Below are positions 63,722 through 64,000 of a stretch of 64,000 nt of DNA, piece by piece. The translations under genes were made by a program, and so were the position numbers. Below the pieces are notes generated by a model. The model was not told the origin of the DNA. It saw only the letters and a program-made list of their open reading frames with translations, and searched no databases. The DNA lies in the IMG/VR virus record IMGVR_UViG_3300044617_000226, positions 14,989 to 78,988 of that record; one strand, written 5' to 3'. This DNA comes from a virus. Within the stretch, counting starts at the first letter, position 1. The number at the start of each line of letters is the position of its first letter.

Positions 63722-64000
63722 TTTGCTGGTCGGGTGCCGACCCTCCTTGAGGAAGCGTGAAAGACCGCCGACGGATCTGGAGTAAGCGTAGAATAACATC
63801 TACGGAAAACCGAGAGGGCAATCGACAGGTTTGCGAACCCTCAATGAGTCTATAGTTCACTTTGTCTTGCGACTATAGAACATGCGTTGCCGAGATATGT
63901 AACAGTATCTCACTACAGTCCCATAAACTTTACAGGGCAACCGGTAGCAACATACAGCAAACAGGCTAGTGTGTTGGGGAATAGACGACATGGGTGATAG
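63722..64000 (+). ncRNA. Candidate structured non-coding RNA, family not recognised, probably truncated by the window end
   Basis: No ORF in the track; visibly GC-richer than the flanks; several complementary stems, some nested (see findings). Strand assumed from the upstream operon and G-U pairing. Confidence 0.55.

Follow-up and report, generated by a model that had tools for sequence, protein, structure and literature searches.

Large, intricately folded RNAs of orphan function are rare, and the earlier cases have been ribozymes, riboswitches, scaffolds of ribonucleoproteins or cage-forming assemblies. GOLLD (RF01998) and ROOL (RF03087), often found in phages and prophages, are the systems most comparable to the one described here, being multi-helix, pseudoknotted RNAs of more than 300 nt that were recognized by comparative genomics as stand-alone non-coding RNAs (ncRNAs). 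The subject of this work is what is very probably an ncRNA gene at the end of a phage contig in IMG/VR (record IMGVR_UViG_3300044617_000226, rated 23% complete), which is like GOLLD and ROOL in all these respects, as well as in its strongly conserved joining strands and its orphan function. The stretch analysed, hereafter the window, comprises bases 14989-78988 of that contig (64,000 nt). Window position 64000 is the contig end, and the contig stops inside the RNA, of which the window carries the 5′ part only. The element has no sequence or model similarity to GOLLD or ROOL and is smaller; whereas these lie next to tRNAs, it occupies a fixed place in one clade of T4-like giant phages.

Polynucleobacter-1 (RF01718), which was defined from Burkholderiales and from fresh water and estuary sequences (Weinberg et al. 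2010, PMC2864571), is likewise an orphan structured motif of fresh water, and its model finds no match in the phage RNA. A sequence-only reading of the window had proposed that the gap behind a resolvase gene encodes a large multi-stem RNA, and covariation in about 200 related contigs bears this proposal out and assigns the RNA to the + strand.

Conservation and covariation of the region

We regard it as nearly certain that the gap contains a real structured RNA gene on the + strand. The two features concerned are as follows.

63142-63717, + strand: PD-(D/E)XK endonuclease of 191 aa, the 'resolvase' (Pfam PF24608, E = 3e-24; PHROG 244, 'RusA-like resolvase')
63724-64000, + strand: ncRNA, 5′ part (about 270 of about 355 nt), cut by the contig end (homology in 80 loci)

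The 283 nt that follow the open reading frame (ORF) of the nuclease form the largest ORF-free gap of the window, the runner-up measuring 164 nt, and their GC content is 0.484 as compared with 0.389 for the window; both the length and the GC richness had been noted from the letters alone. Relatives were gathered by a search of IMG/VR with the nuclease protein, which yielded 80 related loci (protein-ascertained). A homologous block with 69-95% nucleotide identity begins right after the nuclease stop codon in 80 of the 80, and the hairpin pattern is present in more than 120 additional contigs, giving about 200 related phage contigs in all. The conserved block is about 400 nt long, and the RNA core has a median length of 354 nt.

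In an alignment of 53 protein-ascertained sequences (A2), 96.9% of 3,672 cells form standard pairs, against 83.6% after shuffling and 30-44% when the partners are slid, although the sequences are phylogenetically related and such cell counts overstate the number of independent events. Covariation, which had been named as a check on the proposed RNA, is abundant: 46 of the 71 pairs have changed on both sides in a compensatory manner, and 0 of 500 shuffles match the observed value on any of five measures. The well-aligned helices H3, H4, H5 and H6, together with the inner three pairs of H7, are 85-100% paired and contain many double changes, and separate statistics on 123 unique sequences agree with these pair counts. 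The hairpins of variable length (H1, P2b, H6a and H7) are beyond column scoring; with each sequence folded individually, they form in 106-123 of the 123. In the well-aligned helices G-U is found 247 times and A-C 23 times, and therefore the RNA is read from the + strand. The z-score of the minimum free energy is -2.3 for the + strand and -1.55 for the - strand, thermodynamics being weak by itself, and RNAalifold recovered the fold only in part from the raw MAFFT alignment.

The region is non-coding. Its variability is without three-base periodicity (0.21 / 0.22 / 0.24), the hairpin lengths cover all three classes modulo three, no frame stays open, and the ORFs that can be read in the gap vary in frame and strand between loci. 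Nor does a coding sequence enter from the right, as had been considered: in the relatives the next gene runs in the other direction, its end lying more than 100 nt beyond the RNA core, which places the element at a convergent junction.

Helices and pseudoknots

The fold was derived in three ways: by eye from 53 unique gaps, by mutual information with average product correction (MIp) over all column pairs of the 123 unique sequences, and by independent pair counts in alignment A2. All three converge on one structure, and MIp recovers the helices plus both pseudoknots. It consists of about 14 helices, with a 5′ domain (H1, P2, H3), a central domain closed by P3, and two pseudoknots, PK1 and PK2, which connect the central domain with the 3′ part. 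In window coordinates the elements are the following.

63728-63733 / 63737-63742, + strand: H1 hairpin, GGUCGG/CCGACC; differing stems stay complementary, formed in 117 of 123, median z = -3.9
63743-63746 / 63779-63782, + strand: P2, CUCC/GGAG (domain 63743-63782); 100% paired, CUCU/AGAG in the relative L061
63751-63753 / 63770-63772, + strand: P2a; tandem G.A/A.G in the window, Watson-Crick in other members
63755-63757 / 63766-63768, + strand: P2b hairpin, scored by one-by-one folding
63787-63792 / 63799-63804, + strand: H3 hairpin, CGUAGA/UCUACG; 99% paired, two-sided changes in 6 of 6 pairs
63809-63812 / 63942-63945, + strand: P3, long-range helix ACCG/CGGU that closes the central domain (63809-63945); 98% paired
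63814-63818 / 63838-63842, + strand: H4, GAGGG/CCCUC; 100% paired, 4 of 5 pairs compensatory
63822-63824 / 63834-63836, + strand: H4a, UCG/CGA, inside H4; 100% paired, 2 of 3 pairs compensatory
63844-63846 / 63881-63883, + strand: P5, AUG/CAU, encloses H5; ACA/UGU instead in 14 of 53 sequences
63849-63856 / 63872-63879, + strand: H5, UCUAUAGU/ACUAUAGA; with P5 100% paired, 10 of 11 pairs compensatory
63886-63891 / 63936-63941, + strand: H6, GUUGCC/GGCAAC; 99% paired, 3 of 6 pairs compensatory
63892-63897 / 63906-63911, + strand: H6a, variable hairpin inside H6; forms in 123 of 123 members
63948-63958 / 63965-63976, + strand: H7 hairpin with one bulged A; forms in 123 of 123, outer pairs in the MIp list
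63919-63922 / 63977-63980, + strand: PK1 pseudoknot, UCCC (inside H6)/GGGA; 97.9% paired
63862-63866 / 63984-63988, + strand: PK2 pseudoknot, UUGUC (H5 loop)/GACGA; MIp Z = 13-18, 99.6% paired, 5 of 5 pairs compensatory
63993-64000, + strand: start of the 3′ domain (5′ strand of H8); the alignment of the window with the relative L005 stops at L005 6864

The six stems that the sequence-only reading had listed lie where it had placed them, each corresponding to a helix conserved in the relatives. Its alternative partner for H4, a ccctc at 63741, did not survive: CUCC at 63743-63746 pairs instead with GGAG at 63779-63782 in P2, as the CUCU/AGAG of L061 illustrates. The long-range helix P3, the two pseudoknots and the 3′ part past the contig end go beyond that list.

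Exchanges of pair type are found throughout the fold. In A2 the pair types of P2a are UA 17, CG 14, AU 11 and other 9, the inner three pairs of H7 are 99% paired with two of them compensatory, and P3 has an extra outer pair that is UA in 29 and CG in 18 sequences, L058 carrying AUCG/CGAU. In the MIp set the outer pair of PK1 is UA in 80, AU in 14, CG in 14 and GC in 7 sequences. Embedded in this covarying frame are strands that hardly vary at all, comprising the near-invariant ACUACAGUCCCAUAAACUUUACAG enclosed by H6 and the invariant unpaired strands ACUACAG, AUGCGUU and AACCGGU. The 5′ side of P2 carries an invariant CCUCCUU (63741-63749), and its partner (63776-63785) an invariant GGAG. The former is identical to the anti-Shine-Dalgarno end of 16S rRNA. 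Because both strands of P2 are invariant while the other helices covary freely, their sequence conservation suggests a sequence-specific role beyond pairing.

The 3′ domain and its twin boxes

In the relatives the RNA runs about 90 nt past the point where the window's contig stops (L005 6865-6945). The order of this 3′ domain is H8 with box 1 in its loop, the hairpin H9, box 2 and a tail. H9 is a hairpin of 10-11 bp (UGGUAGUGC.../...GCACUACCA) that is near-invariant in the protein-ascertained set, with one change from U-A to G-C and one from A-U to G-U; its invariance in the 123-sequence set is partly built in, the search pattern being H9 itself.

The twin boxes are two identical 7-nt words that flank H9 and mutate together. 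The word in the H8 loop, e.g., GC(AU)GGCAA, is repeated in the tail (GCGGCAA), and 17 distinct words occur, e.g., GGCAU/GGCAU, CGGUAA/CGGUAA, GAUAAU/GAUAAU and GUUGAA/GUUGAA. At the column pair 449/521 the combinations are GG 85, TT 22, CC 4 and AA 2 (MIp Z = 16). In a regex test the own tail word was found in the own H8 in 87 of 123 RNAs, and the cross-match with RNAs of other words was 4.2%; this test supersedes the longest-common-substring and column-anchored identity tests, in which the shared GGCAA and misregistration obscured the signal. Among near-identical pairs of RNAs that differ at the box position, both boxes differ in 13 of 13. The covariation is of the same base and non-complementary, which means that the boxes are not partners in a helix; they resemble a pair of sites recognized by a single reader. 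Such identity covariation is not known from GOLLD or ROOL. A conserved CC is present 6-12 nt after box 2 in 92 of the 123 sequences (27.6 expected). It hints at one additional pairing; for a possible second hairpin around box 2 (H10), folding joins this CC to the UGG that follows H9 in no more than 27 of the 123 members.

Two further observations concern this domain. The word GCGGCAA and its complement are about 2.5-fold over-represented under a second-order Markov model in three large contigs (G006, G007 and G010), whatever their own word, probably as a result of coding bias. In addition, the break of the window's contig (window 63993-64000) falls where the conserved core gives way to the hypervariable H8/box region (L005 6787-6864), and contigs from the RNA libraries X3, X7 and X9 stop no more than about 80 nt from this break point. 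Strain variation in H8 probably breaks assemblies here, and an ending inside this RNA gene may be common among contigs of these phages.

Ends of the RNA and traces of expression

Conservation sets in abruptly upstream of H1, with T-A-A-(A/C)-A-A-T-T-n-G-T-T, and this onset contains a -10-like box.

63717-63722, + strand: -10-like box AACAAT (consensus T-A-A-(A/C)-A-A-T), at a fixed distance from H1 in 115 sequences

The box, which reads TACAAT in L005, lies 7 nt before H1, and transcription is predicted to start at about 63728, where H1 begins. In loci in which the upstream gene has been exchanged, the box is still found with the RNA. A promoter scan found no canonical sigma-70 promoter in L005, and the GACACCAnGTCA that recurs further upstream varies at synonymous positions and encodes the D-T-K/T-S motif of the nuclease. 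On the 3′ side the core is followed by an A-rich variable spacer and then by two small hairpins. These hairpins (L005 6955-7000; A2 columns about 585-645) carry a recurring GAGCGAnAGCGAAG-type motif; they look like back-to-back terminators and fail the criteria of the terminator scanner, which found no canonical terminator.

A dozen RNA libraries from lakes and fresh water contain 14-21% of the words sampled from the nuclease gene plus the RNA. Four RNA libraries from four studies were compared with L005. In three of them the sole matching contigs (197; 255 and 160; 274 nt) fall inside the RNA, the one from X9 covering L005 6582-6855 and starting 4 nt before H1; the missing contig cover elsewhere in X3, X7 and X9 is no evidence of silent flanking genes. 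The fourth library has a contig of 1,199 nt that passes through the nuclease gene and ends at L005 6936, the end of the core. Transcription had also been named as a check on the proposed RNA, and the presence of the element in RNA libraries is a hint, and only a hint, that it is expressed as RNA.

Comparison with catalogued RNAs

No family of Rfam 15 matches the element at E <= 10 in the window part and the full-length L005 RNA, or at E <= 1 in five loci, a scan of 11 SegE-neighbour loci was equally negative for the element, and the matches found elsewhere (SpF56, sR9, mir-9428 and mir-1245) are at chance level. The RF01718 covariance model (141 positions, cut-off 37 bits) gave no match at E <= 10 in the window RNA, the L005 RNA, the window's contig and five divergent members, none at E <= 1 in five large contigs, and none at E <= 0.1 in 11 loci around homologues of the SegE endonuclease; by the measure of this model, the subfamily lacks the RF01718 part or has diverged beyond recognition. 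ARAGORN detected no tRNA or tmRNA in the window or in 18 related loci, and a BLASTN search of 50,697 cultured phage records returned no match for either the window part or the full-length RNA. These results agree with the earlier statement that the region could not be matched to tRNA, tmRNA, RNase P or an intron. A 24-base core pattern run against prokaryote species representatives gave a single match, which lies in a membrane-protein ORF of a Bacteroidota metagenome-assembled genome, is expected by chance and is not the RNA. The element is not described in the main text of a survey of 10,000 phage RNA candidates (PMC10690425). On the evidence of these sequence and model searches, the ncRNA is absent from the RNA catalogues.

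The central strand order resembles the P3-P7-P3′-P8-P7′ of group I introns, but the element differs from them in having no exon context, no match to RF00028, a knot strand inside H6 and a location between convergent genes. A group I intron was tried and rejected: the element lies between convergent genes and the upstream stop codon stands at a varying distance from H1. The conserved part of the nuclease protein ends before this variably placed stop codon.

Genomic setting and the upstream nuclease

The gene order is constant in the relatives, the nuclease (+) being followed by a gap of 370-575 nt without a conserved ORF, a small ORF (-), the gene for a T4-type baseplate hub (- strand, PF12322) and then a large + ORF. 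The RNA gene sits within a replication/recombination module, with gp47, gp46 and the nuclease upstream of the RNA and in the same orientation. The element is found once per contig, which includes two contigs rated 100% complete (360 and 525 kb) as well as the contig of the window. The small ORF between the RNA and the baseplate hub gene is conserved in all loci (57-75 aa, motif SWYMRGG..YEDVLNMS) and is exemplified by two of them.

L005 7008-7184, - strand: small conserved ORF, no Pfam or PHROG family
L138 7871-8089, - strand: small conserved ORF, no Pfam or PHROG family

Each large contig has a single main switch from a long block of - genes to + genes; with the RNA oriented on the + strand, it lies at about 255.3 kb in G006, about 176 kb in G010, about 336-341 kb in G007 and about 107-112 kb in G008. 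It coincides with the cumulative GC-skew minimum in G006 and G010, is found 5-8 kb upstream of the RNA, where the gp47/gp46 block starts, and may mark a divergent promoter or an origin.

The PD-(D/E)XK nuclease precedes the RNA in 95 of 96 testable loci. In loci of the L138 type and in L287, a SegE-type GIY-YIG endonuclease (PF19835, E = 9e-36) is upstream of the RNA. In L138 the SegE gene (6718-7161, + strand) occupies the exact place of the PD-(D/E)XK gene, with no change in the RNA, the -10-like box or the downstream genes. Further SegE homologues (L288-L299) are found elsewhere without the RNA, as expected of a mobile gene. A more divergent copy of the RNA was observed at about 4618-4950 of L294, some 2 kb downstream of a SegE homologue and with another gene between them; it has H9 and the ACCGA motif and is unmatched by the strict core pattern. 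Conversely, in the phages Salicola SCTP-2, Pseudomonas PA5oct and Sinorhizobium Phosso the next gene follows directly after a distant PD-(D/E)XK homologue, with no RNA. Phosso (PV764938.1, a 469-kb phage) also has about 1 kb without an annotated gene (L203 1487-2500) directly upstream of its Holliday-junction-resolvase gene. Because SegE replaces the PD-(D/E)XK enzyme with the RNA kept in place, the nuclease is not a dedicated partner of the RNA; it is an interchangeable neighbour, and the linkage reflects conserved gene order and not partnership.

Proposed mode of action and alternative explanations

We infer that the ncRNA is a stand-alone gene, with a large compact fold, of giant T4-like freshwater phages. 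The RNA would have its own start at the -10-like box 7 nt before H1 and would end before the two small hairpins, which would separate the gene from the convergent baseplate genes. Its action would be that of a scaffold or decoy in trans: a rigid, knotted core would fix the geometry of the invariant hairpin and of the two identical words, and a two-site partner, dimeric or repeated, would bind hairpin and words and evolve with the phage. Such a partner would more likely be a protein, or a nucleic acid outside the examined phage contigs, than the product of a gene adjacent to the RNA, and the RNA would probably act in the early DNA replication/recombination programme. This scaffold or decoy mode, in which the knotted core presents the hairpin and the twin words to a two-site partner, is put forward as a tentative preference. 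In its proposed mode only, the RNA is like 6S RNA and CsrB/RsmZ, stable RNAs that show repeated words or a mimic to a multi-site protein; the words of the CsrB/RsmZ type are fixed (GGA), whereas here there are only two words, with 17 forms, in a far more complex fold. It is rather improbable that the twin words are guide-like and base-pair with host or variable phage nucleic acid outside the searched sequences; on that reading the RNA would be a programmable adaptor joining two identical sites beside an invariant protein-binding hairpin.

Several points weigh against the stand-alone gene and its two-site partner, in addition to the relatedness of the sequences and the partly built-in invariance of H9 mentioned above. 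As regards the start, no -35 element stands at a fixed spacing before the RNA in the 115 sequences, and the site that the promoter scan offers in the window (TTAACA, 17 nt, AACAAT) belongs to a class whose count is not above chance. As regards expression, assembled contigs cannot show ends, strand or level, DNA may contaminate RNA libraries, and the contig spanning nuclease and RNA equally fits read-through from the upstream operon. As regards a reader of the boxes, complementary or identical 6-8-mers have no consistent position within +/-6 kb, own words are no better than foreign words in Watson-Crick plus G-U complementarity between -480 and +330, the own box word is not enriched in any of five whole contigs, and none of 121 alignable homologous sites in the same genomes tracks the box word.

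The replication origin that the sequence-only reading had named as its alternative has to be divided. A purely DNA-level origin is excluded, because the covariation is of RNA type, with tolerance of G-U and two pseudoknots; what is left is a function of the RNA itself as origin or primer, which we consider possible though unlikely. ColE1 RNA II and the transcripts of T4 oriF and oriG prime DNA synthesis via persistent hybrids. The transcript would likewise hybridize persistently to an A/T-rich stretch 3′ of the RNA and prime the leading strand, and an initiator would recognize the palindrome and twin boxes, as DNA or as RNA. In origins of the T4 oriF or ColE1 type a promoter is followed by an A/T-rich unwinding stretch; here the -10-like box lies before and the A-rich spacer after about 355 nt of folded RNA. 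RNA folding could control the hybrid in a transcript of a replication region such as this. The place in the replication/recombination module, the single copy and the A-rich variable spacer after the core all accord with this explanation, as does a distance of 5-8 kb from the main -/+ gene switch, near the cumulative GC-skew minimum, in four large contigs; the two direct repeats on either side of an invariant palindrome are iteron-like, also in that they change together, as iterons do with their initiator. The RNA, however, is not where the skew reaches its extremum; this falls on the divergent junction that precedes the gp47/gp46 block, and GC skew in these genomes simply follows gene direction. 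There is no homology to ColE1 RNA II or the T4 origins, the element stands at a convergent junction with no adjacent initiator gene and only two 7-nt repeats, and in T4-type origins, which lack an elaborate conserved fold, a promoter and an unwinding element suffice, not 14 covarying helices with two pseudoknots. That the RNA is a ribozyme, self-cleaving, ligating or acting in trans, with the knotted core as catalytic centre and the two words marking reaction or docking sites, is doubtful. In its size, its two pseudoknots and its invariant unpaired strands the RNA resembles typical catalytic RNAs, and the order P3 5′, PK1 5′, P3 3′, hairpin, PK1 3′ recalls the P3-P7-P3′-P8-P7′ of group I. Yet no ribozyme or intron model of Rfam matches at E <= 10, the 5′ strand of PK1 is inside H6, unlike in group I introns, the RNA is without flanking exons, given an upstream stop codon of variable position and a next gene on the opposite strand, and no reaction product is visible in the RNA-library contigs.

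The upstream genes have prompted two other explanations. A cis-acting 3′ element of the gp47-gp46-nuclease operon, that is, a 3′ untranslated region (UTR) that blocks 3′-5′ exonucleases or directs processing, would account for the position of the RNA directly after these genes and in their orientation, for the 1,199-nt contig that spans the nuclease gene up to the core end, for the hairpins after the core and for the missing canonical promoter in L005. We think this improbable, as the complexity and sequence invariance are far beyond the needs of a protective structure, the element and its -10-like box are unchanged when the upstream gene is replaced, the twin-box covariation would have no role, and three RNA libraries have contigs of the RNA part alone, which is a hint. 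Still closer to the nuclease would be an RNA that acts as its guide or cofactor in the manner of an omega-RNA, the twin boxes being the guides. The RNA does start where the nuclease ORF ends and runs the same way, as do the omega-RNAs of TnpB and IscB, with linkage in 95 of 96 loci and boxes that vary as guides do. Nevertheless, the unrelated GIY-YIG enzyme SegE takes the place of the nuclease while the RNA stays, no RNA gap follows the homologues in SCTP-2, PA5oct and Phosso, no target of the boxes was found in cis or in five whole contigs, and conserved gene order within one phage clade explains the linkage, all of which makes a dedicated guide hardly credible. About as remote is a diverged member of a catalogued family (RF01718, group I intron, RNase P, tmRNA, GOLLD or ROOL) that the models have missed. 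The freshwater habitat of RF01718 is also that of these contigs (PMC2864571), but none of 4,227 Rfam families matches at E <= 10 on the RNA alone, RF01718 is null in the window's contig, in 10 other contigs of the family and in the 11 SegE-neighbour loci, and ARAGORN is null as well.

Implications for giant phages

The carriers of the RNA form a clade of 250-525-kb T4-like giant phages of lakes and fresh water. In the annotation of their genomes, the gap behind the nuclease gene should be neither labelled an origin nor left blank, and it should be borne in mind that contigs tend to break inside this gene. The well-defined fold, with 14 helices and two pseudoknots, suits structure probing by selective 2′-hydroxyl acylation analysed by primer extension (SHAPE) or cryogenic electron microscopy (cryo-EM). 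The two words, which are identical to each other and yet drift between phages, imply a reader and provide an experimental handle on it. If the guide-like reading were true, it would mean a new RNA-directed step in the replication, recombination or host takeover of giant phages. More generally, identifying the reader would uncover an RNA-dependent step new to the biology of giant phages.

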